From Octopus vulgaris (Eukaryota), in contig OX597828.1 in NCBI GenBank assembly GCA_951406725.2, positions 71,424,001 through 71,488,000 of the forward strand: DNA of 64,000 nucleotides, in the 5' to 3' direction. Positions 28,117-59,584 of the stretch are shown one piece after another. Every line of letters begins with the position of its first letter. The first letter of the stretch is position 1. Made by a program: the position numbers and the translations under genes. The notes under the pieces are model-generated. The model was not told the DNA's origin and made no database searches. It saw only the letters and a list, made by a program, of their open reading frames with translations.

Positions 28117-29334
28117 ATGTCGGATGTAGCTGACTCAAAGCCATTACCGTCTTCGCTTACGCAATCCTTTATGAATGACTTCAACGCTGATATTGTTAGC
28201 AGAACCAAAAGCGATAAAAATGTTCTGTTAGTTGCAGATGATCCCCCTCCTGCAATGAATTCTATAAACTTCATAAACCTAGACGAATGCAACCAGCTGG
28301 CTGGTTCGAGGAACACTAAACGGGTCACCGCCAGTTCTGTTAAATTGTTTCGAGCCTTTTTAAAGGAGACCAATAATGGAAGGACTGATTTTGAAAATTT
28401 TGATGAAGAAATCCTTATCAATCATTTGATAACTTTTTTTAAGCGGGTAAGAAAACCAGATGGTGATCTCTATACGAAGAATGGTTTGCTGTCAATTCGT
28501 TTCGGACTCAGAAGGCGCTTGTTAGACTTACGTAAAGTTGATATTACTAAGCACCCTCACCTTAATTCAGTTTTTACTGCTCAGATCAATAAATTGAAAC
28601 GAGAAGGCAAAGGAGATATAAACCATTACCCTCCCATTAGTCACGATGACATGTTCAAAATTTATAGTTCAGGGATTTTGTCACCCGACACGCCGAAAGG
28701 GTTGTTAAGGAAGATTTTCTTTGAAACTGAAATGTTTTTTTGTCGACGAAGTAGAGAAAACCTAAGGGATTTGAAAGGAAGTCACTTTAAAATTGAAACC
28801 GACGATCAGGGCAAAAAATATTTGACCACAGATTTTGATCCATCATTTGGTGGTGGACCAATCAAACGGATTTATGAAACTGGCACAGACATATGTCCCG
28901 TGAAAGCTTTCCGCAAGTTTTTGCTGAAACGTCATTCTAGCTGTGAGGCGTTATTTCAACGTCCCGTGGATATAATTCCGTTTTCTGAGCAGGATCCTTG
29001 GTTCCATTGTTCAGCTCTCGGCCTCAATAAACTCGCCAACATGATGAGAGAAATTTCTTCAGAAGCCTGCCTATCCAAGATATATACAAATCATTCCATA
29101 AGAGCTACCTCAAAATCGGTCTTTGATCTCGTCTGGAACGGGCTCTTCTCGCAGAATTCAGCGAATCCAATAGCACCTGCCTCTAGTGAGATCAGCAATA
29201 TTAGTGACACAACTTCTGTTTCAAGAGAGAAGCCAGGGCAGCAACGGTCATCGTCATCTCAAGGAAATGAAACTGATATCGATTTGAAATCGAACTTAGA
29301 CATACAAGAAATTGAAAGGAAACACGCCCCTGTG
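28117..29334 (+). CDS. Cassette exon 4: Crypton tyrosine-recombinase-derived DUF3504-like domain (KCTD1/KIAA1958/ZMYM/QRICH1-like; 406 aa), phase-0 donor
   Basis: SRNTKRVT..FF..VRKPDGDLY..LLSIRFGLRR..FCRRSRENLR..CPVKAF..LFQRP..W...LGLNKLANMMREIS..YTNHSIRAT. In-frame TAG at 28081. Ends GTG|GTGAGT at a codon boundary. No TE termini seen. Confidence 0.88.
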
Positions 29335-30883
29335 GTGAGTTCTTCATTAATACTCATCTTTATAAAACAGACCCCCATCTCTACTTCTTCACATGTTGCA
29401 CCTTGTTTCTCTTCCACGGTCCTCCAGTCTTCTAATTTCACCTCTTTTATGACTCGTCGTAAATTAAGTGACGTCACAAATTTGGTCTTAACTGACATTG
29501 ATATACCAATAACGAAAGCAGTCTTAAGACTGAATCACACTCAAATATAACTGGGTGTGACCTAGATATTAAGCTACTATTTCTTGCAGATTGAGCGACC
29601 ACTATACTCTTCGAATCGGGTATAGTGATGTATAGAGTGAAAGAAGTTGCGGCTATTATGCCTTTCCGTAATCCTTACTACAAACAATAACTGTAACATG
29701 TAATATGCCCACACTCTGATGTATACCAGCCAATGTATCATTTGAGTAAGGTGAAGGGTTCCATATGTGTTGCTCTTGTTTAGCCCAAGGTCAACTTCAT
29801 TGAGGCAACCTGTAATCAGAGCCTTTCCGACTGTGACAATTTCGTGTTTTTTTACTTAAAACGAAATTCAGCCACTGTGTATCGAGGGTAAACCCTACCA
29901 TCTTAAGGGTGGGGGGGGAGAGAACTGTGTTTCTTTTCTTTAAAACGGTGAGGATATAATCTGAAGAAGAGCTGACTATTATTTCTAGCAGGCCGAGTGT
30001 CCACGTAGAGGGTCGACCTGCAAGAAATTGGGGGTTTAGTGGTATAAAAAAGTGTGGGTTGTATTGTGATAGGAGGGTGGGCGATATAGGTGTGCGAGGG
30101 CCCTATTATTGTTGTTGGGAGGAGTGGTGGGGTTTAGCTCCCCCAGGTCAACTCTGATTGAGCAGATTTTTTTCCCAAAGACATTTCAAACGTGACCATC
30201 CCGTCTTTCTTAAATACAGGCAACCGAAGACGTCATCTAACGGAGCCAGTTTAAAGATGATAAGGCGTGATTTGAGGGAGATTTAGTTGCTATTTCTAGC
30301 AGATCTAGCTACAATGAAAAAGTGTCCTTTGGACCGAGTGCAGGGATGGATAGGGAAGAGATATTACCTATACAAGTGTGCTCCCCACCGACTTTGTTTC
30401 CTCATAACTTCCAGAAAAATGGATATTGTTTAATGAAATTTTCTACAAATATGCTTCAGACGATACAGTTTTCGATTACATCGGAATTTGTTGTTAAAAA
30501 AAGTTTTTCCGAGGGTAGGGAGATGGATTTCGGAAAATACACAAGAATTAGCTCTGGTTTCTCATAACTTAACGAAAAATGGATATTTTTTTAATGAAAT
30601 TTTCAATAAATGCTTTTCAGATCGTGTATATTACGATTATATCAGAATTTAAACCCTAATCCTAATCCCCTCCCCAAAAGACAAAAACTGGTGGGTGTGC
30701 ACATATACTTACTGACACATCACGAAATGAAACTTGAAATTTCGTAAAAATTGTGACGTGTGCCAAGTATGTGTGTGTGTGTGTGTGTGTTTACCGTTTT
30801 GTTTTCATATCAAATTCCGATTTAATCGTAATTTACAATTATCTAGAAGGTACTTGTAGGAAATTTCATAGAAAAAAAAGTTA

Positions 30884-31304
30884 GGCGATCTTTCGTCTCT
30901 CGTAGACCTTTCCGTCGATTTCCGTAAAAAATTTTTTTTTTTTTTTACATATGGGCTTGCGGGAACTTTTGAAGTAATATACATACATATATACACATAC
31001 ACCGAGTAAAAAATTTCAGTTATCTCTTTCTTTCACACATTACTGTCTCTTCACACACACTAACAGAAGCACTTCACTTACACAACATACTGTCTGTCTC
31101 CCACACTCCATCAAACACACACATGTACATCAATGCTTCACATGCACGGTAACTTCAAAAGAACTTCCCTCGTCATACAATCGCTTTCTCTTAGTCTCTT
31201 TCGCTCTCATTACTTCAAAAGTTCCCGCAAGCCCATATGTAAAAAAAAAAAAAAAAATTTTTACGTAAATCGACGGAAAGGTCTACTAGAGACGAAAGAT
31301 TGCC
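30884..31304. mobile_element. MITE with ~95-bp TIRs (GGCRA ends, ~8-bp TSD; Merlin-like)
   Basis: ggcgatctttcgtctc..gggaacttttgaagtaat vs attacttcaaaagttccc..gacgaaagattgcc. Flanks aaaagtta/aaaaggta. Confidence 0.7.
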
Positions 31305-31318
31305 AAAAGGTACCATTT

Positions 31319-34012
31319 GGTACTTGTCAATTGTCGTGGTCCCGGTTTTGCACACGCGAATTCGCGCGTGCGCGCGCGCCAGACGTAGGTACTCGATACT
31401 CGAGATCCTACGAGGTGACTTGCGCATGCGCAGTGCAGAATTCGCGCGTGCGCGTTAAACCCCCCCCCTAAAAAAAAAGGTGTTGGATTTCACTAAAAAT
31501 ATATGTGTGTGTGTGTGTGTGTGTGTATATATAACATTTTCAATTTTACACAAAAAAATTACATAGTCGCTTTCCTCGCGGATTTACAGAGAAATGAATT
31601 AATTACTATTTTACAGAATAAAATTAATGAATTAATTATATAAATTAAATAATTCTTGAAAATTAATTAATATTAATAATATTTTTTGAACAAAGTAAAT
31701 AATTTATAAAACTTGGTTAATAATTTTTTTTACACAAACGCGAACGTATATAATTTGTGAAACTTTTTTTTTTACAGACGTATATAATTTGGTAAACTTA
31801 ATGAATTAATTTCTTCTCATCATCATCATCGTTTAACGTCCGTTCTCCATGCCAGCATGGGTTGGACGGTTCGACCGGGGATCTGGGAAGCCAGAAGGCT
31901 GCACCAGACTCCAGTCTTATCTGGCAATGTTTCTACAGCTGGATGCCCTTCCTAACGCCAACCACTCCGAGAGTGTAGTGGGTGCTTTTACATGCCACCC
32001 GCACAGGTGCCAGGCGAGGCTGGCAACGGCCACGGTCGGATTGGTGCCAGTCGAGGCGGCTCTGGCATCGGCCACGATTCGGATAGTGCTTTTTACGTAC
32101 CACCAGTCCAGGGGTCCTGGCATTTGCCGGGTGCCACACTTGCCCCAACATGTCTTCGCAAGCAAAGGGGGTTGGCATGGGTGCCTGTCGTGGGATGAGG
32201 TTCGATATCAACTTCGCTTGCCTCAACAGGTCTTTGTGTATAAATGTATAAATTTTTCGCACTAAATTCTTTCCGTAGAATTTATAAAAAAACGCGCAAA
32301 ATTATTCCGTAGACTTTATCAAATTAAAAAACGCAAAATTAATATATTTTTTGAAATTGCAAATTATTTAGAATATAAAACAAATTAAGTTAAATTTTAA
32401 AAATAAATGTCATATACTTATACTCTGTAAGGTGCTGTGTTCACACTTCAATTTACTATTTTCTAGAAATGTTGCTTTTCTAATTGAAACAATTTTTCTC
32501 AATCTCCATTTAAAAGTCCATAATGCCTCTTGAGCCATATCAAAATGAACAACTTTGAATTACCCGGGGTGTGGTGGTGGTGGTGGTGTGAGGTTCTAAT
32601 TTTTTTTCTGATCTCTCTTTGCCCCCTCTTTATCTCAGTTGTTCATTCAGCTAATATTTAGAAAAATTTTCGCGCCCAATTTTTGTTGTCGCGGGAAAAG
32701 ATGAACGATTTAAAATAAATATATCTTAATTGTAGTGTGAGAAAGTATATATATTCTGATGACAAAATATATTATCTTTCAAAAACATCCCAAATTTATA
32801 GACTATATCGTGTAGGCTTAAGAAATATATATATATATATATATATATAGATATAGATATATATATACATATATAGTAGAGAATGAAACATCTTTCATCT
32901 GTCTCCCCACCACACCTCCATCTAGGGGGGCAAAGAGAGATCAGAAAAAAAAATTAGAACCTCACACCACCACCACCGGGTAATTCAAAGTTGTTCATTT
33001 TGATATGGCTCAAGAGGCATTATGGACTTTTAAATGGAGATTGAGAAAAATTGTTTCAATTAGAAAAGCAACATTTCTAGAAAATAGTAAATTGAAGTGT
33101 GAACACAGCACCTTACAGAGTATAAGTATATGACATTTATTTTTAAAATTTAACTTAATTTGTTTTATATTCTAAATAATTTGCAATTTCAAAAAATATA
33201 TTAATTTTGCGTTTTTTAATTTGATAAAGTCTACGGAATAATTTTGCGCGTTTTTTTATAAATTCTACGGAAAGAATTTAGTGCGAAAAATTTATACATT
33301 TATACACAAAGACCTGTTGAGGCAAGCGAAGTTGATATCGAACCTCATCCCACGACAGGCACCCATGCCAACCCCCTTTGCTTGCGAAGACATGTTGGGG
33401 CAAGTGTGGCACCCGGCAAATGCCAGGACCCCTGGACTGGTGGTACGTAAAAAGCACTATCCGAATCGTGGCCGATGCCAGAGCCGCCTCGACTGGCACC
33501 AATCCGACCGTGGCCGTTGCCAGCCTCTCCTGGCACCTGTGCGGGTGGCATGTAAAAAGCACCCACTACACTCTCGGAGTGGTTGGCGTTAGGAAGGGCA
33601 TCCAGCTGTAGAAACATTGCCAGATAAGACTGGAGTCTGGTGCAGCCTTCTGGCTTCCCAGATCCCCGGTCGAACCGTCCAACCCATGCTGGCATGGAGA
33701 ACGGACGTTAAACGATGATGATGATGAGAAGAAATTAATTCATTAAGTTTACCAAATTATATACGTCTGTAAAAAAAAAAAAGTTTCACAAATTATATAC
33801 GTTCGCGTTTGTGTAAAAAAAATTATTAACCAAGTTTTATAAATTATTTACTTTGTTCAAAAAATATTATTAATATTAATTAATTTTCAAGAATTATTTA
33901 ATTTATATAATTAATTCATTAATTTTATTCTGTAAAATAGTAATTAATTCATTTCTCTGTAAATCCGCGAGGAAAGCGACTATGTAATTTTTTTGTGTAA
34001 AATTGAAAATGT

Positions 34013-34044
<32 letters not shown>

Positions 34045-34229
34045 TATATTTTTAGTGAAATCCAACACCTTTTTTTTTAGGGGGGGGGGTTAACGCGCAC
34101 GCGCGAATTCTGCACTGCGCATGCGCAAGTCACCTCGTAGGATCTCGAGTATCGAGTACCTACGTCTGGCGCGCGCGCGCGCGCGAATTCGCGTGTGCAA
34201 AACCGGGACCACGACAATTGACAAGTACC
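31319..34229. mobile_element. Foldback-type non-autonomous DNA transposon: ~1.3-kb near-perfect inverted arms, ~300-bp spacer, 9-bp TSD (MULE- or Merlin-like)
   Basis: Arms 31319-32626 and 32926-34229 (ggtacttgtcaattgtcg.. / ..cgacaattgacaagtacc). TSD gtaccattt at 31310-31318 and 34230-34238. Both arms carry the same family B retroposon. Confidence 0.92.
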
Positions 34230-37200
34230 GTACCATTTTTCTGAAAGTTATGAGGAAACAAAGCTAACAAGTGTTAATTTTCAGAAACTGCCCCCCCCCC
34301 ACCACCTCGGTAAACATTTTAAACAACAATTCCGATATAATCGTGTCTACATCATCTGAAGCGTATTAAAAAAAAATCATTAAAAAAAATATTCATTTTT
34401 CTGGAAGTTTTGAGGAAACAAAATCGGGGTATGGTTGGGGTATGCCACACACACACATAATGTAAAGAAGTGGTACGAATGTATATTGTGGTAGGTAGAG
34501 GGTGAATACTCTGGTACAGTGTACTATATAATAAAGTAGAAGAAAAATAAATAAAGTCGGTGCTTCAGCATGGCCGCAGTCTGGTGATTGAAACCATTAA
34601 AAGAATAAAGGAATGCGTGTGTAAAATGGTTTTGTTAAGGCAGGCCAGTCCTGAGTGAGTGGAACTATGATCAGAGGCATGCCATCGATGACCATCTCGT
34701 CTTTTTCTCATGTGTAGGTAACGTAGAGCCACAGTATCGAATGGATCCTTTTCTAAAACGTTAGGGTATGTGCTTTGGCTGCTATTTCTAGCGGGTCTTG
34801 TGACCACATGAAATTCCCGCCGCATGTGTGTAATAGACGTACGATTTAGTAAAGGGGGCAAATTTTTACGAGTACACCCCCCCTCCACGCGGTTCACTAA
34901 GTAAAATAAAATCCCTCGGATTTACCGTAGTGTGGAGATATGTAACAGGGTGGAGAGGCAGTGTGTGTCCGTGTCCCTTATCGTTCACTTGTTTCAGTCA
35001 TTAGACCATAGCCATGTTGGGGCACTGCCTCGAAGAGTTTAGTCGGGTGTATCGATCCCAGGTACCGAATTATTTAAGCTTGGGTTCGATGGCCACCCGT
35101 CTAACTTACGAGAAAGTAAACAAACTTACGTGCGCACACGTAAATACGACGGGCTTCTTTCAGTTTCCGTCTACCAAATCCACTCACAAGGCTTTGGTCG
35201 GTTCGTGGCTATAGTAGAAGACACGTGCCCAAGGTGCCACGCAGTGGGACTGAACCCGGAACCACGTGGTTGGGAAGCAAACCTCTTTCCACACTTCTTA
35301 CACACACACACACACACACACACTTAGTAATTAGCGTCTAGCGATGTTGGATGTACGGAGGAGCGTGTATATATAGCCTTGTGTATATATCAAACTGTGT
35401 ACTAGCGTGTTGTTTATCTGCTCTTATTTCAGTCCCGAGTAAAGCTATGACAGCAAGATTCCAACCATGACCATCCTGTCTTTTTATATATCAGTGACTA
35501 CATGTGCTTCCCTTTTCTTCACGACTCTAAGGTACTATTTGGCTGCTATTTCTTGCAGTTCAAGCTTACCACGTAGAAACACCCTTGTTGGCTTGTAGTG
35601 TCGTGGTGTGTGTCTCTGTGTAGTTGTGTATGCATATTGGTGGTGTGTGTGTGCGCGTATGTACATACAGTTGTGTGTATAGTGAGGTGAGTGCTGTGTG
35701 TGTATATATTGGTGTGTGTGTGTGAAGCTCTGTATGTATGTATATATGTGTGTGTATGTGTAATATGTGTGTGTGTATATATATGTGTGTGTGTGTATAT
35801 ATATGTGTGTGTGTATATATATATGTGTGTGTGTATGTATATATATATATCATCATCATCATCGTTTAGCGTCTGTTTTCCATGCTAGCATGGGTTATAT
35901 ATATATAGATATATATATATAATGTGATTGTGTAGTGGTGTTTCTATGTAGTTGTGTATATTGGTATGTATGTGTAGCTGTGTGTGTGTAGTGCTATGAG
36001 TTCAGTGATGTCTTTGTACAGGTGTGTCTGTGTTTGGGTATTTAGAGGTGTATGTATAGCTATGTTTGTTGTGTATATGAGTGTATATGATGTAGTAATG
36101 TGTGTGTGTGTGTGTGTCGAGTCAGATGATGATAAGGCCCCCCAAAATCACAAATTGTGTCAGTCAGGTGTCTAAGGTATTGATTAATCAGTTTAGGACA
36201 GATTGATTTGATCAGCATTAGTTTCAAGATTTGGCGCAAGGCCAGCAATTTCGGGAGAGGCGGGGACTAGTTGACCCCCAATGCTTGACCTGTACTTATT
36301 TTATCGACCCTGAAAGGAGCAAAGTCAACTCCAGTGGAATTTGAACTCAGAACGTAAGGATGGGTGAAATGCTGTGAAGCATACTGCCCAGTGAGCTAAC
36401 GTTTCTGCCAGCTTGCCGCCTTTCATTTGATCAATATCAATTAATATTGATTAAGGCAGTGAACTGGCATTTTGGCCATCTTTGCAAAGGTGGCGAGCTG
36501 GCTGAGTTGTTAGAACGCCAGGCAAAATGCTTAGTAGTATTTCGTCTGTCACTATATTCTGAGTTCAAATTCCGCCATGGTCGACTTTGCCTTTCATCCT
36601 TTCGGGGTCGATAAATCAAGTACCAGTTGAGTACTGGGGTTGATGTAATCAACTATCCCCCTCCCCCAAATTTCAGGCCTTGTACCTCCAGGAGAAAGAA
36701 TTTTGTCCATCTTTACATTCTGAGTTCAAATTCTACCAGGGTCAAATTTGTCTTTCATCCATTTGGGGGTCGATAAAATAGATACCAGTTGAGCATTGGG
36801 GTTGATGTAATTGACTTATACCCTCCCCCAAACTTGCAGGCCTTGTGCCAAAATTTGAAACCAATATAAATAACTTGATTTGATTATCTCCCCTTATTTA
36901 GTGTGCATGTATGTGGGGGAGGGGTGGACATACTAACAGTAAGGACTAAACTCTGCCCCACCCCACAAAAAAAAACGGGTCCTTATTTTGTTGAAGGAAA
37001 TGTATCTGCTACAGTCACTTGCTAGATAGATAACCATTATATAGTTGCATATAATGGTTATCTATTTAGAAGGCTGATCTGGGCCTTATTTTTAAACAAT
37101 GTAATTTGTTATAGGGGTCTGAAATAATTCACTGCTGTTACAAGTGGGTTGTGAGGTTTGGTAGAAGATCTCTAATAAAAAGGGTCAGTGCAGTGGGTTG

Positions 37201-39420
37201 ATTATATGGTAGGACCGAGGAAAGAGAGCAGAACTACTCACTCGCTCATAACACCACTTGGTTCTAAGTTGATCTGTTAGTGAAGGCTTGTGGCTTAATG
37301 GTTAGGGATATTCAGTCCATGAAGGGCATCCTGCTGTAGAAACTCTGCCAGACCAAGATTGAAGCCTGGTGCAGCCATCTGGTTCGCCAGCCCTCAGTCA
37401 TTCATCCAACCCCTGCTATCATGGAAAGCGGACGTCAAACTTTGATGATGATGATGATGATCGTAAAGTTGGGAGTTTGATTCCTGGCGGAGTGCCATGT
37501 CTTTGGGAAAGGCACTTTATTTCACATTACTCCAGTCCACTCAGCTGGCAAAAATGAGTGAAACCTGTATTTCAAAATGCCGGCCTTGTCACACTCTGTC
37601 TCACACTGAATCTCCCTGAGAACTACGTGTGTCTGTGGAGTGCTCAGCCACTTGCATGTTAATTTCATGAGCAGGCTGTTCTGTTGATCGGATCAAGTGG
37701 AACCCTTTTCGTAACTGTAATCAACCGAATGCCAGTTAATGAGGACCTGTTGATTTTTATCAAAATTTACCTAGCCGCCTGTCACTTGTACATACATACA
37801 TGACAACTGCCTCATCTTGTCAGATGATAGTCATCTCACAGAAATGGTAGTGAGACATCTGTATGTCATTGGGTTTAATTGAGAATAGCCTGCACAGCAT
37901 TTTTGGTCACTCTCTTGGTCACCTTAGCAGGTTCCAGTGGCAAGCATTGCCAAAATGTCTGCTACTGTTTTGACTGCAAGTTTTACATCAGAGTATCTTC
38001 CTTCTAAAAGGGCTGCATTCCTCCATAGCCTTGTCAAAAATAAAACAAGAACCTCCTCTACCCCCAAGAAATCTATTTAATCCAGAGATGGCACTCTGAG
38101 CAGGACCACCATTCTGGGTCAGAATGGCTCTGCGAGTAATGGTGATTAGAGGTGATTCCATACTCCCCACAACTTCGGAACTTCCAAACTTGAGTGTCGC
38201 CAATGGTTGCAGTTTAATGTCATACCTAGAACATACATGCATACATAATAAAAAATAAATGCGCCCTTTTAAAGCCTAGCCAGGTTCATGGGCCCGGTTT
38301 CCCAGTTTCTATGGCGTATGTGTTCCCCAGCTGGACGGGACACCAGTAGCATCGCAGCGTTACTCATTTTTGCCAGCTGAGTGGACTGGAGCAACACGAA
38401 ATGAAGTGTTTTGCTCAAGAACACAATATGTCGCCTGGTCGAAACAACAACCATACGATCATGATGCTGACACCCTAACCACTAAGCCATGCTCCTCCAC
38501 ACATGCATAAATACATAGGGTAAATGTGTTTGAAGGTTTTTTTTTGGTATGTTTGTTCCCAAAGAACACTTCTTTTAGTGCTGTTGACACTGCCGGATTG
38601 ACTGGTACTGCCCAGGTGTCAAAACCATCATGATATCCATGTGGCAGCTGATGAGGGAGGTATGTTGGATTGTTGGTATGGCTGTTTTTGTATATGTGGA
38701 ATAGTGTTATAAACACATCATTTTGATACATACATACATATATAATATGCAAGACTTTTCTCAAGTTTAAAATGTGAATTATTTTTTGTTATCTATATTC
38801 CAACAATGGAGTTATGTATTTTCCTTAGAGGAACAATTTAAATAATTTAAAACAGAAGGGAACAGGCATATGCAATACTTTATTTCAGGGTTATCTCCCC
38901 TGCTCCACTTTATCAGAATTAATCACAACACTAATGATTTTTTTCTCATTACAAATGTAATTTTTTAAGTGAATATATTAATGATTCTTGGCTCACTACA
39001 TTATCTATGTTAATGCCCACTTTACTGTTTGTTTTTCATATAAAGGGGAGACCCTGAGTACTTCTCCCCCCCTCCCTTTCTCTCTCTCTTTCAGCCTTAT
39101 TCGTTGTTTATAAAGAAAGGAATAGTCTTACCATGTCTAGAGATTGCGTGTTACAGCAGTGTGGTGGTGGTGGTGGTGGTGGTACACACCGCACTGCTGT
39201 GAATACAGAAGTGGTTGCTGTGTGTGTGTATGTGTGTGTGTGTGTGTTTACTGGTTCTAGCTACACTCTCTAGTGTGAGTATCTAAGATCCACCCTCCCT
39301 CCAACGTATACTCTGATACTCTGCATGACTCAACATGACCAGCTGACAATAGGTGAAACCTAAGATCTTGATGTGATGTCCTACTTACCACACACAAGTA
39401 CACACACACTGTGTGTGTGC

Positions 39421-39456
<36 letters not shown>

Positions 39457-39515
39457 TTGTACACATCTTTACTAATAAGCATGTGTATCATATAACTTTT
39501 GAAGAAAGAAAAATA

Positions 39516-39548
<33 letters not shown>

Positions 39549-40236
39549 GTGTGTGTGTGTGTGTATCTCTGCACCCCCTCCACACACACACACACATAAG
39601 CACAAGCAGACACACAAACACCCGTATCATATATCTTTGGTAGATCTCAACAGACAGTTCATCACTTGTTTTCCAGATGCTGTATTCCAATAATAATATC
39701 ACCCGATATATTTATTTATCAATAAATATCATTATACATATTATTTTAATGTATATTGATAAAATAAGGTGGTGAGCTGGCAGAAACATTAGCATGCCGG
39801 GTGAAATTGCTCAGCGGTATGTCATCTGTCTTTACGTTCAGAGTTCAAATTCTACCGAGGTCGACTTTTCCTGTCATCCTTTCTGGGTTGATAAATTAAG
39901 TACCAGTTGTGTACTGGGGTCAATCTAATCGACTGGCCCTCTCCCCCAAAATTTCAGGCCTTGTGTCTAGAGTAGAAAAGAATATATATTGCAAGCTAGC
40001 AGAAATGTTGGACAACGTTAGAGGTGCTGGACAATATGCTTAGTGGCATTTCAACTGTCTTACATTTTGAGTTCAAATTCTGCTGAAGGTCGACTTTGCC
40101 TTCTATCCTCTGGGGTCGATGAAAATAAGTACCAGTTGAACACTGGAGTTGATGTAATCAACATACACTATTCCTTGAAAATGTCAGCCTTGTACCAAAT
40201 TTGGAAACCAAAACATCGATAAGTTATCATATATAT

Positions 40237-40615
40237 AGGTGCAAGAGTGGCTGTGTGGTAAGAAGCTTGCTTACCAACCACATGGTTCCAGGTTCAGTCC
40301 CACTGCATGGCACCTTGGGCAAGTGTCTTCTACTATAGCCTTGGGCCGACCAAAGCCCTGTGACTAGATTTGGTAGACGGAAACTGAAAAGAAGCCCATC
40401 GTACACACACACACATGTTTGTGTGTCTGTGTTTGCCCCCACTACTGCTTGACAACTGATGTTGGTGTGTTTACATCCCCGTAACCTAGCAGTTTGGCAA
40501 AAGAGACCAATAGAATAAGTACTAGGCTTACAGAGAATAAGTCCTGGGGTTGAATTGTTCGACTAAAGGCGGTACTCCAGCATGGCGAGTCAAATGACTG
40601 AAACAAGTAAAAGAA
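40237..40615 (+). mobile_element. tRNA-derived SINE (family C), near full length
   Basis: ggtgcaagagtggctgtgtggtaagaagc..ggttcagtcccactgcatggcaccttgggcaagtgtc..gactgaaacaagtaaaagaat. Other copies at 46006-46335(+), 7140-7490(-), 34985-35295(-), 41950-42110(-) and 55440-56085(-). Confidence 0.8.
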
Positions 40616-43208
40616 TATATATATATATATATATATATACATACATTACACACACACACACCTTGCAAATATTCATATATTGGTTTTCCATACACATGAT
40701 TTGTCTGAATCTTCTCCTGTCCAGTTTCTCATCAATTAATTACTCTCCTGAATAATTATCCCCAATGTGAATTTCAGTTTCCTGAGACCAGCTTTTACCA
40801 TATTTATCACCATGGTTTTCTTCTTCCACAGATTCCCTTTCGTTTGGATCACTTGGTGCTCCTTTACTCAACAGTTGTCCTCCATATCCATATCAACATG
40901 GTCCCTCTCTTGCACACAACTCCTAATTCCTTGTCTGCCCAGTCTTATTCTCCGTTCGCTACTCGTTTACCATTGCCTGTTTACTCCACCAATGCATGTC
41001 AAACGAAACAGAAACATGCTTGCTTCATTCCTTTCCAACCATTGCTAACAATCTCAGCTTCCAATGTCCACGTTTGCCTTCCATACAACAATTTCACACT
41101 TGATGCACATACATCGTACAATCTCTGCCCTTCACTCAAAGAACCCCTTTGTTACCCATCGTGGTAATAAGCTCCTCAAACTCCATCCACCTTCTTCTTA
41201 CTCTAAGAGGTTTGCAGAACAGCCCCCCCCCCCCACTGGTGGTGTGGGTCAGCTAGGAAATAGAAGCTGTCAGTTACTTTGATGGAACATTCCAGGCATT
41301 TGGAGGAATTCATTTCATGCCTGACTGTCATCTGTTTATCCCCTTGGGCCTGGTGCAGCCCCCTGGCTTCCCAGACCCCAGTTGAACCGTCCAACCCATG
41401 CTAGCATGGAAAGCGGACGTTAAACGATGATGATGACATCTGTTATTTACAAGTCTTTCCCTGTCAGCTTCAATGGGGTCTCATTGCAGTTCTTGTGTAC
41501 CTTAAATTTCCATTTCCATGCTGGTGCCACATAAAAAGTACCCAGTACGCTCTGTAAGGTGGCTGGCGTTAGGAAGGGCATCCGGCCATAGAAACCATGC
41601 CAAAGCAGACAATGGCGCCAATTAGTTAACGATTTTAATTTGGTGTTTCTCTGCTTGCTTCTCTCTCTTTGGAGCATCTCCTTTGTCCTTATAACAGTTT
41701 ATGATAATGCTGTTATGCCATTCATTGGGTGGATATCCCACATCATCATCATCACCATCATCATCTTTTAACATCCACTTTTCCATGATTGCATGGGTCA
41801 GATGAAATTTGTTGAGACACTTTTTTTTTGCGGATGGATTCTCTTCCTCACCTGTCTCCAAGCAAAGTGATATATTTCTCCATGGAACACTGGAAACGAA
41901 CCACATCGCTTGCATGATGTCAAGTTACCCACAAACACACATATACACAGCAAGCTTCTTTCAGTTTCTGCCTACCAGATCCACTCACAAGGCCTTGGTC
42001 AGCCCTGGGGCTGTAGTAGAAGTCATTTGCCCAAGGTGCTGTGCAGTGGGACTGAACTCAAGACCACATGGTTTGGAAGCAAGCTTCTTAACCACACAGC
42101 AATACCTGTACCTGAACTAACTGATCCACTGCACGAGAGATGACTGTGTCCAGCTTTGCAGAATGGTTTTAGCATTCCACTGACTGTTCTCAAGGGCTTG
42201 GCTGCTTTTCCTGCCTTCATATCGTTATTTGCTGTCACCCTCAATATCTGATCCCTCTTCTGGGGTCAATAAGAGGTAGTCCTTCTTTCACCGTTTCAAA
42301 GTAGCATTTCCATGCCTCTCTCTCTCTTCAATGTGGACAGGATTGCTTTTATCATTCTGTTCCCTTCTTCCTCAATAAACCCCTGATTTGTACTGGTGCC
42401 ATGCCATACTGTTTGGCAATTGGGAACACCTCGTACTCTTGATTCTCTCCCCTTGCAGAACATTGGCAAAGCACTTTCATCTCCTTTCCTGGCATATCAG
42501 CTTTTCTTCTGGGTTCGGAATTGCTCTTTGGTCAGTCCTTCCAATTACACTCTCATCCTAGTCTGTGTCCTGAAAAGGACCACTGATTGACATGAAATCA
42601 CTCATAAGTACTCTTCAGCCTCGCAGATGCACTGTCTCTTCTTCTTGCTTATGCTACCACTACTATAATGGCCTCTGGCTGGGCTCATGCCATCTCCACT
42701 CAGGCATTCTCTCTCCACTCATCTCTTCTCTTCTTCACATTCTTGTATCCAACCCTTCTCCTACCCCAGCACTTATATCACTCTTCCCAATCCTTCCTCA
42801 CCCAGAATGTTATCCCTTTGAGATCTTCCCCCCCATACCCCTCCCTCTTGCTCATATCTTCCCCTACAAGTGGAAAAGTTCAAGAAAAACATTAATAGCA
42901 TCAATCTCTCCAGTGTTGGGGAGTCCTTGAAGGTGATGGAGACTGGCCTTTCTTTCTCTACCAACTAACTTCTCCCCCCCTCCCCCCAAATTTCAGCCCC
43001 TTATCTGCTGAGAATCGGTAATGCGTCAGACAAAAACACCTTTTACTATTTTTTTCCAGCTCTTTATGTTTTGAGTTCAAATGCTGACAAAATCAACTTT
43101 GCCTCCATCTTTTGCTTGATCAAATAAAGTACCAGTCAAGTACTGGGGTTGATGGTATTGCACCCCCCCCATCAAAGAAATTGCTGGCATTGTGCCAAAA
43201 TTTGAAAC

Positions 43209-43253
<45 letters not shown>

Positions 43254-45348
43254 GGCAGTGAGCTGGCAGAGTTGTTAGACAATATGCTTTGCAGTTTTTC
43301 TTCTGGCTGCTTACATTCCGAGTTCAAATCTCACCGAGGATCCACTTTGCTCTTCATCCTTTCAGGTTCAACAAATTAAAGTATCGGTCAAGTACTGGAG
43401 GTTGGTGTTATCGAATTGCCCATTCCTGCTAAAAAGTTACCGACCTTGTGCCAAAATCTGAAACCATCACAACCACCACCACCACAACCATCATCACTAT
43501 CATTAATCTTATCATCACCACCACAACCATTATCATTACCACCTCCACCACCACTACATTGGGGCATACATTTTCAGAATCACTCGTGCTTTGGGCAAAA
43601 TACAGTAACCCTTCGACTATTGCGGGTGTTACCTTCTAGAACACCCCTGTGGTAGGTGAAAATCTGGGAAGTAGAAACAGTACTGTATATTTTTTTATTA
43701 TTTTTAAAATTGTATATATTGGTGTTATTAAGGGCATCCAGCTGTAGAAACACTGCCAGATCAGACTGGAGCCTGGTGCAGCCTCCTGGCTTCCCAGACC
43801 CCGGTCGAACTGTCCAACCTGTGCTAGCACGGAAAACAGACGTTAAACAACGATGATGATGATTTATTTTATAATAAATGCAAAAAAACACCGTGGAGGA
43901 ATCGATGTAAGCTTAATTAATAAACCGTGATATGGCGAGGGATTATTGTACCTTGTTGTATTTAGTTGTGTTTCATTGCATTCAGTGTTCATATCTCACC
44001 AAAGGGTCAGTCGTGCCTTTCATGGTTCTGGGGCCAATGAATTGAATGCTGGTCAAATACTGGGGTTAATTAAACCAACTGTTTCTTCTCTCTTCTGATA
44101 ATTTGTGGCACCTGCATGGAAGTCAGCAATTAATGTTTTTAGAGGTCCATGGTTGGTAGAATTGGTAAGGCGGCGAGCTGGCAGAATCGTTAGCATGCCG
44201 GGCGAAATGCTTAACGGTATTTCGTCTGTCGCTACGTTCTAAGTTCAAATTTTGCCGAGGTCAACTTTGCCTTTCATCCTTTCGAGGTCGATAAATTAAG
44301 TACCAGTTATGCACTGGGGTCGATTTAATCGATTTTACTGTTCTTGTTTGTCCTTTCTGTGTTTAGCCCCTTGTGGGTAGTAAAGAAATAGGTATTTCGT
44401 CTGCCGCTACGTTCTGAGTTCAAATTCTGCTGAGGTCAACTTTGCCTTTCATCCTTTTGGGAGGTCGATTAAATAAGTACCAGTTACGCATTGGGGTCGA
44501 TATAATCGACTTAATCTGTTTCTCCTTGTTTGTCACCTCTGTGTGTAGCCCCTTGTGGGCAGTAAAAAATAAGAAGTGGTAAAGTGTCAGATAAGATGGG
44601 GAGGGAGGGGGGAGAGAAGGTGCAAAAAGGAGGCGAATGGTGGGTGTGGTGAGGGGGGTGGAGAGGAAAGGTAACTGAGAAATCCAGGTGATGTAGTATG
44701 TGCTTAGTCTGTTCTTAGGTAATAGAGGATTGATGGGTGGTAGGGGATGAAATGTGGGGGTGGGGGCAGAGAGGATGGAGGTAAGCATTACGGAGGTGGT
44801 CTTCTTGAGTGCAGTAGAATTGAGAACCTAAAACCACTTTGGTAATGCTTATCTCCATCCTCTCAGCACCCCCCTCACATTTCATCCCGATACATTATGT
44901 GTGTGTGTGTGTATAAGTGCCAACATACGAAACTCTTGGACCTTGAGTCACTCTTGCTTCTGCTAAATATTAACAAATACACTCACACACTCACAAACAT
45001 GTACATGTATCATCATCATCGTTTAACGTCCGCTTTCCATGCTGGCATGGGTTGGACGATTTTGACTGAGGGCTGGCGAACCAGATGGCTGCACCAGGCT
45101 CCAATCTTGATCTGGCAGAGTTTCTACAGCTGGATGCCCTTCCTAACGCCAACCACTCCGAGAGTGTAGTGGGTGCTTTTTACGTGCCACCGGCATAGGG
45201 GCCAATCCGGCGGTACTGGCAATGACCTCGCTCGAATCCTTTTACACATGCCACAGGCACAGGTGCCAGTAAGGCGACGTTGGTAACGATCACGCTCGAA
45301 TGGTGCCCTTTTACGTGCCACCGGCACAGGTGCCAGTAAGGCAGTATG

Positions 45349-45383
<35 letters not shown>

Positions 45384-45910
45384 CACATACATACAGTTTT
45401 GTCTATCCTGATTGCATTGTGAAACCTCTTTATCTGTCTGTGTGCCCCTCTGTATATATTAGTTAATCGTCTTCAGCGCTTAGCTGTTTAGGATCCGATC
45501 CTTGTGTGATTTGAACCCTGGAAATAAAGAGACAAAACGAAATACTACCTATCTATTTTGTCATCCGCTCTCGTAATTCTTTATCCATACACCACCACCA
45601 TAACAGTTTCTAACACTTACACGGCGAGTTTACGTCATTTTGGTGGCGGGAAAGTCGATTAAACCGACCTCAGTAGGATAAATGATAAAAAAAAAAGATA
45701 TTGCAGTATTTAACACCAGGGCTTTGTTATATACCACTTGTTTATGTTCTTGCTTCTAGAGGCCACTACAAGTTTTTGTATCAGGAAGGACTTTTCCGCC
45801 GTAAAAGCCTCTTTCTTACCAGCATAGGAAACAAATGAACGCAAAACTGATCACGATGACCCTCTTTCCCCCAGATCCCTGTCTAGGTTACCATCAGATA
45901 TATACGAGAT

Positions 45911-46339
45911 CAGTGGTTCCCAACCTGTGGTCCGCTTAGGTAACACTGGGGGTCTGTGAACTAAATTTAAAATTTCATAGAGAGATAGAGAGAAAGGGAT
46001 AGAGATAGGCGCAGGAGTGACTGTGTGGTAAGAAACTTTCTTTCCAATCACATGATTCCACGTTCAATCCCACTGCGTGGCATATTGGGCTAATGTCTTT
46101 TCTGCTATAGCCTCGGCCCGATTAAAGCCTTGTGAGTAGATTTGGTACCCGGAAACTAAAAGAAGCTGATCGTATATATGTGTGTGTGCGTGTATCTGTC
46201 CCCCACCATCGCTTGACAACCGATGTCAGTATGTTTTCGTCCCCGTAACTTAGCGGTTCGGCAATAGATAACGATTAAGTCATGGGGGTCGATTTGTTCG
46301 TCTAAAGGCGATGTTCAAATGACTGAAACAAGAAAAAAA

Positions 46340-46411
<72 letters not shown>

Positions 46412-46560
46412 TATATATATATATACACTATATATATATATATATACACTATATATACACACACAAACACACAAAAGGATAAGCATATTAAAAGGGGTCC
46501 GTGGGAAAACTCATCTAAATAAAAGGGGTCCTTGGTAGTGAAAAGGTTGGGGAACCACTG
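45911..46560. mobile_element. hAT-type MITE with nested family C SINE
   Basis: TIRs cagtggttcccaacct / aggttggggaaccactg. A SINE and (TA)n are inserted inside. Confidence 0.65.
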
Positions 46561-48770
46561 TCCTAGGTTCTGCAATGTTATCACCGGTTCGAATGTGTTA
46601 GTGGCGTATTTGAAAACAAGCCGTTTACTGTGTTTTGTCATGGAGAAAATTTCTCTCTGCTTCGCGCTCCCACCTTACAATATTAGGTTCTGTTACAAGG
46701 GCTTGGACGTCCACAAAGCCTTTATGCTCCCTAAACGACGGAACTTCTACTGGTTGCCCGACTTGCTAGAAATAACACCCACCACTATTCCCTCATCATG
46801 CCCCGTCATCTTAAAAAATATAACGTAGTCTTAGATACACTAGGCCTGCCAGAAAGAAAAGGAACAGAAAAAGCGAGAGAGTCGCGACTAGAACGTCTTT
46901 GGTCATTGATCTGTTTGATCAGATCTGACCAAGAGCCAAACGGCAACATGGCCTTCGTTTTTGGCTTTAGTATTATCATTGTGTTGGTCATTTCATAAAA
47001 AAAATATTTCGTTGGAGAAAATGGGAGAAAAGATAACGTCGTTGAACGTCTGCGCGGCCGTCCTCCGCCATTCATGGTGTGAACCTATAGCATTTCATTA
47101 TTTACCCCAGAGATTCCTTTAGGAAAGGCATCAACACCTAACTCCCACTAAAATCATTTCAAACTTCGTAATTCAGTCCAAATGATGTAGGCCCGTGTTT
47201 CTCAACCATTTCTTTTTACATATGGACCCTCATAGCCATTTGATGTTAAAAAACCCCAATTATTATATTTTTATAATTAAATAGTATTACGAATTGTAGA
47301 AAAGAAATTGTTAAAAATTTCTTTCCTATTGTAGAAAAAACCCCCCCAATGGTTCACAGAATTTAATTTTGTCCCTGTTCATCTCGAGTGAAAATCCTGG
47401 CCGTCGGATAATCCCCTTTTTTCTCGGTGTCGGGGTGAGTTGATTAAACCGACTCTACGCCGCCCCTCATCATATTCTCGGTTCTGTACCAGTGGGAGAA
47501 ACCAATGTAATAACTGGTACCAGAATATGAAAGGGATAAAGTAGTCAGGGAGTCAAACCAGTGACTCAGTTTCGAACTCCGACTGGAATAGTTTCTCTTC
47601 AGTTAGTCCCTTACTTATCTCGTTGGAAGAGCCATGAACATCACAACATCCTCTTTATCGTTTCGTATAGTAGTAACACAAAATTGGTTTCTGTTTTTTT
47701 TTTCTTTCTTTTCTATTCTTTGTTTGTTTGATGAATTGAATTCAGTCCTGCCAGGATTCGAACTCGAGTTCTGGGAGAGACTAAGTTATTGTAACGAGTT
47801 TTATAGTCCAACGCTCTGATGTCACAACTGCCTCAGCTTGCTTCTATTTATATTAGAAATTGTTAGCATTATTCGATTGTTGTATTAACACCGCCGCCGC
47901 CACCCATCGCCACCCGCCATCGTCATTATTATCATTACCATCCCCACCACCGTCACCCTAACCATTATCAACACCACCATTATTATTTTTATTACCATCG
48001 CCACAGCCACCGCCGCCACCACAACCATCATCATCACCATCATCATCACCATTAACAACAAGTCGACAGTCTATAACAACAAATATGGCAGCTGGTATTG
48101 AAGGTTTTTGTTGTTCTGTTGTTTTGTTTTGCTTTTGTTTAGTTTTTGTGTGTGTGTGTGTTTTTCTTTTCTTTTCCTTCATCTGAAAGGAATTCTGATG
48201 CTATCATATTTGACTATATAGTCAGTCTGGTAACATTGTTATTTTGCTAACAATGTGAGGTTTTTTCGCCTTGATTTTGTTGTTGCTGTTGTTAACAACA
48301 CTACCGCCGCCGCCACCACCACCACCACCACCACCACCACTACGTAGTAATAGTAGTTGTGGTGGTAGCAGTAGTAATAGTGGCAGAGCATTGTAACTTT
48401 TAATTGTTCTCTAACAAAGCACTTGGTATTCCCCCTCCTCTCCGTGGAACTGCACCCAAATGTTATGGTGTAAATATATATATATATACATATATTATAT
48501 AATATATTGTATAATATATTATATAATATGTTGCATAATATAATATATATATATATATTATGTATCTCTCGGTTAAATATATCTCTGGGTAGCACGCAAT
48601 ATGTGTATGAATCAGTTGTTGGTTTTTCTTCCCTTTTTCCCTCCCCAAGTTCAATTTAAATGTTGTTTCGATGTTGGAAGAAATAAAAAGTCAGGAATGA
48701 GTGAATGGAGGGGAGGAAGGGTGAGGCGAAAAAAAAAAGCTTTTGGTTTTAGTAGAAAGAATAAGAATAA

Positions 48771-48804
<34 letters not shown>

Positions 48805-49300
48805 CGAAGCGATGAAGCTAGAAAGAGTTGTGTGTGAAGTAGGTTTGCTGTTGGTAGTTAGGCAGCTGCTGTCTGCTTGCTTGTTCTACTTTTCTCTTGA
48901 AAACCAACCTACCACCATCAGCAGCCTGCTGTTTGTTGTTGTTTACAGTTAAACTGCTTGTCGATATAACAACCCTGTTGTTAGGCTTACTCAGAGAGGG
49001 GCGGCAGTCAGTTGTTGGTGGCTAGCTACACTCAGTACACATCGATTTACTGCAGTCTGACCTAAATCGACCATCACACAGAACGGTAAACAACGCACCA
49101 CAAGCTCGAGAACATTCGCTGAACGCAGTTTAATACACATGTACTCAAGTTGTGATTTGGTTAGAACATCTCAGCGCCCAGCTTCTCTTCTTCTGCTCAT
49201 ATAAAACCAAGCGATATTCTGTCTAATGTCTCATGTCTGCTCTTATTTGAACAGTTTAGTCGTGGTTTAGCCGTTTTTTTTCCCTCACTTCTCTGCACAG

Positions 49301-49367
49301 ACTCGTGTAACAATTTTCATTTGATATATTAAAACCAGTCGAAAGTTTTTGATGTCGAATCTCTCAG
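49301..49367 (+). other. Candidate non-coding 5'-UTR exon of cassette 5
   Basis: Strong acceptor tttttttttccctcacttctctgcacag| and donor CAG|GTAAAT. Contains a stop codon. Possible next acceptor ctttgtatag| at 49490. Confidence 0.35.
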
Positions 49368-49514
49368 GTAAATCTTATTTCACAACTTGACACAACAAGC
49401 TAAGCTTATTACTGTGTTAATCGGATTAAACAGTTTTTTTTTCTGGTTGGCAACGTGGCTGACGCACAACTGCAAAGAAGCTTTGTATAGAGAGTCTCTG
49501 TTGTGACATCCAAA

Positions 49515-50690
49515 ATGGCCGACCCTCCGTTCGTTGGAGACCTCAATACATCTGCTGTAGATGGTGGTTTGTACCTCACAACAGCGTTGAACAACGAAGA
49601 ATTTGAAGGTTTATTAACGAAAGACTCAAAGTCCAGTCAACAGGCTGAGAAATACGCGGTGTTGAAATTCCGTCACTATCTGACCAAGCGAGGTGAACCA
49701 TTGTCTTTGGAGAATTTGTCCTACCATGTGACCAGCGGTGACATGCCTGCCAAGGAGCGACTGCTTACCTACCTGACAACCTTCTTTAACGATCTCAGAC
49801 GGACTGATGGCAGCAAATATAAATTCAATGCCCTCAGAAGTATTCGTTACGCCTTAAATCGCTTTACTTTGAAGTTTGGAGTTGATTTTCTCAACGATGC
49901 CTATTTGAAAAAACCATTAAATGATGCATGGGTGGCGTTAGGCGAATGCCTGAAGCTGGAAGGGAAAGCCGATGTCCAGCATCACGATATTCTATCGTTG
50001 GAAGAAGTTAAGAAAGCATATGCCTGGTGTAATCAAAATCTTTCCGATCCTGATCGACTCCAAAAGAGAGTTTTTATGGATATTTACCTCTACTTTGGAC
50101 GCCAGTGCCGACAGAATTTACCACACCTGACCAAAGATAATTTCGGCATGGACGTCGATGCCAACAACCAGCGTTATGTTTACTTTATCGACAAAACCGG
50201 CGACACAACCCGTAAAAGCAACACCCAGTTAGTGATGAAAGAACGCGTAGGATTTGCTAATTGTCCCGTAAAGATGTTCCTGAAATATGTTTCCAAATTA
50301 GACCCACATTACCCGCGATTCTTCTGCCATCAAAAGCTAAACGTTGACCCGCTCTACCACACGGTTTGGTATACAAAACAGCCGATGGGCGAGAAGAGAA
50401 TGGCCGAGTTTATGAAATCCATTTCGAACGACGCCGGTTTGTCTAAAGTTTACACAAACCATTGTTTGCGTTCCACGCTGCTCTATCTGATGGAAGAAGG
50501 TGGGTTGGATGCTAAGGATGTCAGTCGAATAACTTGTAGTCAATCATCTCACGAAGTATCCATACCCGAGGTCCCTTCACCAGCACAACGTCCCTTACAA
50601 ACACCACATGCCGCCGCCGCCACTACAAACACGTGGCCCTCCTCACATTCTGGCACCTCACTTCACTCTCGGAATAAAAAATCATCTCAG
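49515..50690 (+). CDS. Cassette exon 5: second Crypton-derived DUF3504-like domain (392 aa), phase-0 donor
   Basis: FFNDLRRTDGSKYKFNALRSIRYALNR..LQKRVFMDIYLYFGRQCRQNL..CPVKMF..YVSKL..VWYTKQPMGEKRMAEFMKSIS..YTNHCLRST. Context aaaATGG. In-frame TAG at 49488. Ends CAG|GTAAGT, a perfect donor at a codon boundary. Confidence 0.88.
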
Positions 50691-52576
50691 GTAAGTTATA
50701 TTCTACACACATTCACCTTCGTCCTCGTTAAACCACCCACCTCGAGCATATCTCTCTCTCTCTCTCTGTACCCAGCAGCCTCAATGTATCCACCCCTATT
50801 TATATCCTCATTTTGTAAATAAAGGAAGGTAACTCTAACATTAATCTGAGAAGTTGAACAAATTCTGGTAAATTATTTCCACCCTTTCAGTTGTTTAGCG
50901 AAGTCCTTGAGGTACCCTGATGTGTCTATTATAGTTGTTGCTTGGCTCCAGGTTAGCTCTATCCCTAAAGGGATTCCGACCATAACCATCTCGTCTTATT
51001 TTTGTGCGACGGTAAATATGATTTGAAGGAAATTTGGCTGCTATTTCTAGCAGGTCGTGCGCCTCCGTCGACTCGTCTAGTGTGGCTATCTTGGTATGCT
51101 AGCTGCTATGGTACCCTGACGTGCCTGATTCTACCCTAATGTGTTAGTCTGTGATAACCAAATGTATCTATGGAACCATAATACCTGTCTTACCCTGATG
51201 CATCTGCTATGGTACCCTAAAATTTCTTGGGATACCATCACTGTGACACCTTGATGTACTTGCTGTGGTACTCTGCTTGTATATACCATGATACCCTAAT
51301 GGTGCTCGGTTGTATTAACAATGGTACCCCGATCTTCTGTTTACTATAATACTCTGATGTTTTTAAATATTCTATTTTCTGTTAGAGTTTTTCTCTTACG
51401 TATCTGTTTACTGAAGTTCTACGGTGGTTTCTGTGCTACAATTTGTAGTCCTACCTCTAAGCTGTCATACCCTTATATGCTATAGGGGTACCTGGCTAAT
51501 TGTAACGCATTTTCACAGGTCCATTTTCACCCTTACGTGCCTGTGACATTCATAGATTGTTGTAATACTTCTGTATTCCGTTGGTGCTTATTGTCTGTTG
51601 TGTGATAGCTATACATACCCCATAATAATACCCGTATACTAACTATAGCTGTCTTCAACTATACATATGAGATGTAGCGCTATACTATCAGGGAAGCTGT
51701 GCTGTGGTCAGTCGATCACACACACACACTGTCACAATCGATCCATTTTGCTTCTTCACAGTTGAGAGGGAACAGCTGGGTTTTTAGTTCTCCTTCACAA
51801 CCACTCAACCAATATACCCCTTCCTTAGTGACTCTTGTCGTACTCGTACTTATTTTCCTGTACTTTCAAAGGCTTTACACACACACACACACCCTACGTT
51901 TACTAATTTCTTCTTAGCTGTTTGAAATTGAAAGAGGTAACTGATCAAAGTTTTGGGGCAGAAAGCAAGTCCTTGAAGGGCATTTGTGGATTATGATAAA
52001 AGCAGGGTTTCTTGATAGCTTTTGAAAATAAACTATTATTATTATTATTATTTTGGTTTGGCTCGGATTCGGTCTTATTTCTGGTAGGACTCATGTGGGC
52101 AGCGGGTTACTACCTGTAACCTTAGGTATCCACACGTTTTCAGCAGTCTTTCAGGTGCTTAGAACCCTTGTGATAATCCTTGCTGTCCCTAAGAGACAAA
52201 CTTTCTGTAGGAGCTCCAATCTAGGCATTCTATTTCAATCTCCTTCAGCCATTTGTCTATATCTTGGCTTATTATTATTATTATTTTATTATTATTATTA
52301 TTATTCAGGGTCGATAAAATAAAGTACCAGTTTAATACTGTGATCCATGCAATTGACATGCCCCTCCCCTCAGAATTGTTGGCCTTGTGCCAAAATTAGA
52401 AAGAATTATTATTATTATTGTGATTTGGGTGTGTTGTTAGTGTCTGGGAAAACACTTAGTGGAGATCAACTTTGCCTATCGTTCCTTTGAGGTTGATGAA
52501 ATAAGGTACCAGTTGAACACTGGGGTCAGTGTAATCGATCAGCCCCTTCCCCTCATTTCAGGCCTTGTGCCTATAG

Positions 52577-52753
52577 CAGGGGCCCCCAAACTGTTTAGAC
52601 CATCAGCTCCTTCATGGAATCCTTTGATTAGGTATGTACAAGAAAATAAATAAATAAATAATAAAGTAGATATGCAGTTTCAGGCATTTATCAACCCCTT
52701 GAGTAGACCCATCAACCCCCAGGGGTCGATATTGACCAACTTAGAAACCCCTG
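52577..52753. mobile_element. hAT MITE inserted in a SINE tail
   Basis: TIRs caggggcccccaaac / agaaacccctg. Perfect 8-bp TSD gcctatag. Confidence 0.75.
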
Positions 52754-59240: not shown

Positions 59241-59243
59241 CAG

Positions 59244-59312
<69 letters not shown>

Positions 59313-59527: not shown

Positions 59528-59584
<57 letters not shown>

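Follow-up and report, generated by a model that had tools for sequence, protein, structure and literature searches.

A window of 64,000 nucleotides from Octopus vulgaris (assembly GCA_951406725.2, contig OX597828.1, positions 71,424,001 to 71,488,000 of the forward strand; positions below are counted from its first letter) was found to carry two exons, termed cassettes 4 and 5, whose identity as domesticated, Crypton-derived DUF3504 exons is supported by profile searches and conservation. In the reading favored here, to which a probability of about 60% is assigned, the two are alternative first exons of one gene and provide likely non-cutting, DNA-gripping heads for a likely BTB-paired transcription regulator.

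Both exons lie on the plus strand. Cassette 4 (28117..29334) is a first coding exon of 406 amino acids (aa), in which a dead Crypton recombinase is followed by a Ser/Pro linker and the phase-0 donor GTG/gtgagt (slash at the exon end). Cassette 5 (49515..50690) is a first coding exon of 392 aa with a dead Crypton recombinase and the phase-0 donor CAG/gtaagt. Their proteins are identical to named Octopus database entries and correspond to isoform X1 (cassette 4; models P0011, P0014, P0015) and isoform X2 (cassette 5; models P0005, P0007, P0008).

Transcript evidence consisted of contigs assembled from sequencing runs presumed to be RNA ("RNA-like"). For cassette 4, contigs from two of four runs (runs X1 and X14, from two studies) covered 28101/28131-29335 and stopped matching the genome at 29335, while those of the other two runs fell short of the donor. 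The loose end after the donor measured 28 letters, of which 27 matched the first shared exon (locus L018, 366-393). The contigs thus pass from 29335 straight into the shared exon, and cassette 5 is skipped in cassette 4 transcripts. No spliced upstream exon for cassette 4 was seen in the contigs examined. For cassette 5, the genomic match ended at 50691 in all four runs, with 22, 22, 1576, and 1530 letters beyond; counted from the donor, the two long extensions, known by their length and not by displayed sequence, reach 1577 (run X7) and 1531 letters (run X13), compared to a coding length of 1518 letters for the constant exons. RNA-like contigs also extended cassette 5 on the plus strand by an unbroken 5' leader that reaches back to at least 48902, and its two longest 5' ends (runs X1 and X3) aligned to the genome to the final letter. 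At 28046-28072, 30-55 bases ahead of the start of cassette 4 RNA cover, CACGTG and CCAATCAG occur, which we take to be promoter-like motifs.

The intron leading from the cassette 5 donor (50691..64000 and on, plus strand) reaches three constant exons just outside the window. With window numbering continued, these plus-strand exons span 64365-64666 (with QQAEFMEAQK repeats), 68626-68767, and 77135-78208, as placed by tblastn and splice sites. They lie 365 to 14,208 bases beyond the window end and together encode 505 aa (1518 coding letters) with a PF00651 BTB domain (E about 5e-11), an IKLEP motif, and a basic C-terminal patch. In the RefSeq/GenBank models of three Octopus species (LOC115220336, LOC106879774), all labelled "uncharacterized", every cassette is joined to this same 505 aa. 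The first-pass annotation, made from the letters alone, had placed the two exons at the coordinates given above as separate first exons of a shared downstream region entered in phase 0. This arrangement was borne out by isoforms X1 and X2, by the contigs with their own donors, and, for the shared BTB region, by tblastn, Pfam, and the cassette 4 splice, so that the downstream spliced partner on which the proposal depended does exist.

Pfam assigned both heads to DUF3504, with E values of 7.6e-6 (26.5 bits) for cassette 4 and 1.4e-6 (28.9 bits) for cassette 5, both slightly below the curated cut-off of 29.7 bits. A profile built from 11 related domains of the genome, cassettes included, matched QRICH1 (9hjt) at 2e-17 and XerA weakly. 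The fold search was run on the cassette 4 model, for which AlphaFold gave a mean pLDDT (predicted local distance difference test) of 80.9, falling below 50 beyond model residue 276, and a predicted template modelling score (pTM) of 0.57. Foldseek matched this model to QRICH1, Cre, Xer, and lambda integrase with TM-scores of about 0.4 or lower, and a retained two-lobed recombinase fold is shown at the level of the predicted structure. The two cores share 30% identity (82/272), in line with the distant similarity noted earlier.

The same annotation had described both heads as keeping the H-x-x-R box while lacking the downstream His and the catalytic Tyr, and the alignment agreed: HSIR is kept in cassette 4 (residue 326) and HCLR in cassette 5 (residue 316), and no G-H...Y motif was found downstream in either. 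Its further claim that upstream recombinase motifs were retained held for cassette 4, which keeps R1, H, and R2 and lacks the second His and Tyr. It calls for one correction in cassette 5, which keeps only H and R2 and, besides the second His and Tyr, lacks R1; a Q stands at the first catalytic Arg (FGRQCRQ versus AKRGRE of the intact ATF7IP Crypton). Catalytic residues were judged by our own alignment and by visual comparison with the intact ATF7IP Crypton and Cre as aligned in supplement 4 of PMC3212892.

Completion of the active site by downstream exons was not seen. The shared exon begins 81 (cassette 4) and 77 residues (cassette 5) past the His of H-x-x-R, well beyond the Tyr position of active-like relatives, and is therefore unable to complete the site. 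Neither head thus carries the R-H-R-Y tetrad with second His of an active Crypton. Nor do the heads occur in multiple near-identical genomic copies: each cassette is single copy, and in the genome the next-best hit of cassette 4 shows 40% identity (22/22 candidates scored).

Loss of catalysis was accompanied by marked conservation of the cores. For cassette 4, core identity was 97, 81, and 76% in O. bimaculoides, Argonauta, and record P0033, respectively, versus 88, 41, and 25% for the tail. For cassette 5, the core values were 99, 95, and 84% in O. bimaculoides, Argonauta, and a more distant record, versus 90, 55, and 49% for the tail. The BTB domain was 93% identical in Argonauta and Sepia. 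Since the cores are far better conserved than the tails across species, the dead folds appear to be kept under selection, as judged from protein identity and not from the ratio of nonsynonymous to synonymous substitutions, and on this evidence they are probably retained for some function. Stretches mapping to helices 1 and 3 of the modelled cassette 4 hardly vary among the orthologues of either head but differ between the two heads, and both cores are basic (isoelectric points of 9.7 and 9.4). As expected of domesticated genes, both heads are conserved and expressed despite lost catalysis, with expression taken from the runs presumed to be RNA.

The two DUF3504 exons were found to be part of a larger locus, with four further first exons upstream inside the window. 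According to database isoforms from three Octopus species, six interchangeable heads are joined to one BTB tail: two DUF3504, three FLYWCH, and one CENP-B-type helix-turn-helix (HTH). The FLYWCH exons lie on the plus strand at 6165..6455 (Pfam 1.3e-9; isoform X6, model P0020), 9692..10000 (1.1e-11; isoform X4, model P0022), and 13639..14001 (6.2e-12; isoform X3, model P0023), each model mapping at 100%. The CENP-B-type exon (15264-15560, plus strand; O. sinensis isoform X5, model P0024) lies inside a young pogo/Tigger-like element of 701 bases (15076..15776, plus strand) with terminal inverted repeats and TA flanks, which has 85 genomic match segments of 82-98% identity, itself excluded. Two phase-0 linker exons (17390-17488 and 18208-18324, plus strand; isoform mapping and splice sites) are used in FLYWCH and HTH isoforms and not in DUF3504 isoforms. 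Because the CENP-B-type exon appears in one model only (P0024, with 7/12 listed short-headed isoform models examined) and is still within a multi-copy element with its repeats, it looks recently captured, and the element looks like an early stage of head capture. One locus would thus hold old fixed captures beside a young one, and one gene likely yields several different gene regulators.

The shared region had been proposed to be a KCTD1/15-type BTB, and this part of the annotation failed. In all eight proteins scanned, PF02214 (BTB_2) and PF20871 (the KCTD1/15 C-terminal domain) were absent at E<=0.1 and PF00651 was the only BTB family found; by these profiles the domain is shown to be of the ZBTB/Kelch class and not of the KCTD class. 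BLASTP gave no match of the shared BTB to the KCTD1-type BTB (P0054), and matches to PDB sequences were weak (best E 0.003), comprising SLX4, Kelch-like, BACH1, and ZBTB proteins. Octopus KCTD1/15 itself is encoded elsewhere, on contig C1, where the only genomic PF20871-type match lies (C1:32.53 Mb). No DUF3504 was found in the 130 kb examined around it, a span that takes in the 36 kb ahead of its first BTB exon, and genome-wide DUF3504 searches listed nothing on C1.

In the favored reading, each head would have its own promoter, and promoter choice would select the head. The BTB would dimerize like ZBTB-class domains, and one dimer would carry two heads, the same or different. A dead head would clamp DNA through its core-binding lobe and the remainder of its catalytic lobe, without cutting, and the tail would recruit co-regulators via the SUMO-type IKLEP motif. 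As to origin, DNA transposons inserted upstream of the constant exons would have supplied a promoter and an N-terminal DNA-binding domain, captured via a splice donor. DNA binding and pairing are suggested by the BTB class, the basic, head-specific conserved helices, the DNA-binding sibling heads, and KRAB-DUF3504 fusions, which were present in 3 of 44 relatives scanned; KRAB is the usual partner of transposase DNA-binding domains (10.1101/2020.05.07.082677).

Several observations weigh against this reading. Transcription start sites are not established by contigs assembled from runs presumed to be RNA, and cassette 4 cover begins only 16 bases ahead of the ATG. Splices of the FLYWCH and HTH heads are supported by database models only, and Argonauta model P0006 places both cassettes in one protein, contrary to strict exclusivity. 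The cassette 4 model compares to Cre with a TM-score of about 0.4 and a root-mean-square deviation of about 10 A, at a pTM of 0.57. Finally, QRICH1 (9hjt), the only solved DUF3504 found in the searches, is reported to bind the protein SEPHS1 via this domain (10.64898/2026.10.26.761783).

The last point leads to the main rival, which is unlikely: the dead heads would be protein-docking modules, as in QRICH1 of Zincore, and would reach DNA through partner zinc-finger proteins. The top match by both sequence and fold is indeed QRICH1, in the entry "Zincore (SEPHS1:QRICH1) binding to ZFP91 on DNA", and the observed conservation suits a protein-contacting surface no less than a DNA-contacting one. 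The octopus heads, however, retain far more of the recombinase, including H-x-x-R and basic cores, than QRICH1 and ZMYM proteins, which end before H-x-x-R (PMC3212892 supplement 4), and their sibling exons are all of DNA-binding-domain types. A role in transposon defence is improbable; here each head would recognize the termini of the transposon family it came from, and the BTB tail would silence that family or poison the active recombinase. KRAB-transposase fusions do bind cognate transposon ends (10.1101/2020.05.07.082677), and the genome harbors Crypton-like elements of a multi-copy family, bearing H-x-x-R and G-H...Y, at seven loci (L008-L010 and L012-L015, on contigs C4, C9, C12, C5, C18, C17, and C10), some copies with open frames of 546-583 aa. 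This family is, however, of a lineage other than that of the heads, being 24-25% identical to cassette 4 and outside the cassette clade in the tree, and no close active relative of either head emerged from genome searches, yet the heads are conserved in Octopus, Argonauta, and more distant records.

Slightly less probable still is a set of nuclear ubiquitin ligases, with the BTB as Cullin-3 adaptor and the heads as substrate receptors. Kelch-like proteins are among the weak PDB matches, beside SLX4, BACH1, and ZBTB, but Pfam detected no BACK or Kelch domain, and the nearest Atlas clusters of the BTB, which serve as leads only, are a mollusc cluster, NACC1-like, and Broad-complex-like (0.90-0.91). 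Chance splicing of decayed transposon copies, or annotation artefacts, could apply to the CENP-B-type head, a young multi-copy element that may be neutral. As a general explanation this is very improbable given the open frames, single copies, cores much more conserved than tails, and spliced contigs from more than one study; conservation rules it out for cassettes 4 and 5, but not for the CENP-B-type exon. Equally improbable is a single ancient Crypton-BTB fusion that would make the gene a true relative of vertebrate long KCTD1. The heads do come from KCTD1's CryptonA subgroup (common motifs by eye, and KCTD1-type proteins among the top phmmer matches), and a clade of the cassette 4, cassette 5, and KCTD1 domains was not rejected (p-AU 0.20, approximately unbiased tree test). 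This idea is largely refuted by the BTB class and the missing KCTD1/15 C-terminal domain; moreover, octopus KCTD1/15 on C1 has no DUF3504 in 130 kb, KCTD1 lacks the second Arg (HCIG) kept in both octopus heads, and the KCTD1 capture is dated after the vertebrate KCTD1/15 duplication (PMC3212892).

Since the BTB class differs and octopus KCTD1/15 is a separate gene with no DUF3504 found in the 130 kb examined around it, the likeness to long KCTD1 is best read as convergence, with one Crypton subgroup joined to two BTB classes, and the octopus Crypton-BTB union is likely separate in origin. The source subgroup of the heads, also that of the KCTD1 domain, is by its motifs an active-type CryptonA lineage, because H-x-x-R plus G-H...Y is kept in 63 of 128 motif sites found among 148 relatives in a wide search. 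The long KCTD1 isoform likewise has a single-exon dead DUF3504 of the CryptonA subgroup that serves as an alternative start 5' of a BTB gene (PMC3212892; 10.1101/2024.06.14.599007). KCTD1, however, combines BTB_2 with its C-terminal domain and forms a pentamer, whereas the octopus gene pairs PF00651 with a long tail of low complexity; KCTD1 captured one head while the octopus gene has six, and the catalytic residues lost differ.

Within the same Crypton subgroup, fusions of different layout were noted among P0060, P0095, P0104, P0149, and P0157: BTB then DUF3504 (P0060), DUF3504-like then a different BTB (P0095), and three KRAB-DUF3504. Judged from these proteins, such fusions point to repeated independent captures.

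The BTB-exon search of the genome gave 26 matches. Six more single-copy dead DUF3504 exons (on C2, C23, C24, and three on C3) all lie upstream of a BTB match on the same strand. A single origin of all ten cephalopod heads included in the tree test was rejected, and cassettes 4 and 5 may come from one origin or from two. Cassette 5 clusters with one C3 head (support 100/99) and therefore may be older than the split of these BTB loci. The C23 head (G000:C23:26793609-26794793; L002, L119) and P0037 keep R1, H-x-x-R, and G-Q-K-S...Y, with Tyr present and His replaced by Gln; by its motifs it might be the one head with some chemistry left.

One paralogous locus, on the minus strand of C3 (G000:C3:149174000-149354300; L091-L109), has some 27 candidate first exons of DNA-binding type ahead of a single BTB gene. 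In C3:149.17-149.35 Mb, 27 of 76 same-strand ATG open reading frames (ORFs; at least 65 aa, Pfam E<=0.005) matched DNA-binding-domain or DUF3504 families, versus 0 of 48 on the opposite strand. The families were THAP (11), DUF3504 (3), CENP-B/Tc5, Psq, Brinker, other HTH, FLYWCH, and zf-C17orf113; some of the 27 are weak matches or may be plain transposon remnants. The next 100 kb held one mariner remnant (2/27 ORFs). At other paralogues, 28/30 ORFs were scanned at C24 and 18/36 at C23. Eleven more tandem BTB genes of the family follow the C3 locus (G000:C3:148964000-149143800; L070-L088), and for most of them the profile search found no heads, their minus-strand ORFs lying outside the Pfam scan. 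Paralogue tails are divergent apart from a psi-K-x-E-P motif (15/16) and a C-terminal YPV.L (12/16). One Atlas cluster, whose 98 proteins come mostly from molluscs and have BTB in all cases and DUF3504 in 11%, may be the cluster of this octopus family itself and is taken as a lead only.

A wider reading, held tentatively and with somewhat less than even confidence, is that of a cephalopod "transposon trap": any DNA transposon inserted upstream could donate a promoter and a DNA-binding first exon to BTB genes, BTB pairing would mix heads, and the dead Cryptons would be two old fixed heads forming a new sequence-specific DNA-binding class. If true, a few loci would give a combinatorial, still growing repertoire of transcription factors.

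When compared with known systems, the gene resembles the clustered protocadherins and UGT1, where variable first exons are spliced to constant exons; there the variable exons are duplicates of one exon, whereas the octopus heads are unrelated folds. With a shared BTB and alternative DNA-binding-domain exons, the octopus gene also resembles the BTB cassette genes. Drosophila mod(mdg4) and lola likewise join one BTB to many alternative DNA-binding domains, FLYWCH included (PMC11426971). Their layout of a constant N-terminal BTB and variable 3' exons is, however, reversed in octopus, where the first exons vary and the BTB is constant and C-terminal, a mirror image whose heads, unlike theirs, derive from several unrelated transposon classes. 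Trans-splicing left no sign, all heads being on the BTB strand. The TTK motif is not reported in Mollusca and TTK-type BTB is given as arthropod-specific (PMC11426971), and by this taxonomic range the octopus BTB would not be of that type.

KIAA1958 also uses two divergent intronless DUF3504 exons as alternative isoforms, with 26% identity between them compared to 30% between the octopus pair; the accessible portion of PMC3212892 mentions no BTB for it, whereas in octopus both exons come first and lead into a shared BTB tail. In KRAB-transposase fusions, transposase domains are likewise joined to a host regulatory domain by alternative splicing (10.1101/2020.05.07.082677), but the host domain is upstream and an acceptor precedes the transposase frame. 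In octopus, the transposon-derived portion forms the first exon and is spliced through a donor, with numerous captures accumulated at a single locus. Most Octopus CENPB and THAP factors have been described with a BTB/POZ domain, BTB being treated as transposon-derived (PMC10027918); "isoform" and "Crypton" do not occur in the main text of that work.

Crypton domestication (PMC3212892, PMC13465315), transposase capture, BTB cassette genes, and Octopus THAP-BTB and CENPB-BTB proteins were thus known, while in the literature searched neither the reversed, mixed-head layout nor a cephalopod Crypton-BTB fusion was found described. The gene likely represents a second, independent union of a dead Crypton recombinase with BTB. 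Domesticated DUF3504 domains are also present in KCTD1, KIAA1958, ZMYM2/3/4, and QRICH1. Because the octopus heads swap with FLYWCH and HTH heads on one scaffold, DNA binding by DUF3504 and its target sequence are directly testable at this gene.

Some further observations were made on related loci. THAP exons lie upstream of more BTB paralogues on the same strand (C24:25.66, C14:52.07, C3:151.25-151.38, and C2:173.16 Mb), and two minus-strand THAP ORFs (L095:9623-9847 and L095:5876-6094) end before the domain end at a phase-0 donor. In Sepia, model P0013 joins the cuttlefish orthologue of the BTB tail to a DUF3504 fragment, which clusters with the C23/C3 heads and not with cassette 4 or 5; it may be an extra cuttlefish head or a faulty model. 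At a distance of 600 kb downstream of the locus, a single-copy, fully degenerate DUF3504 exon with a frame of 599 aa is located (G000:C15:72092685-72093515; L017).

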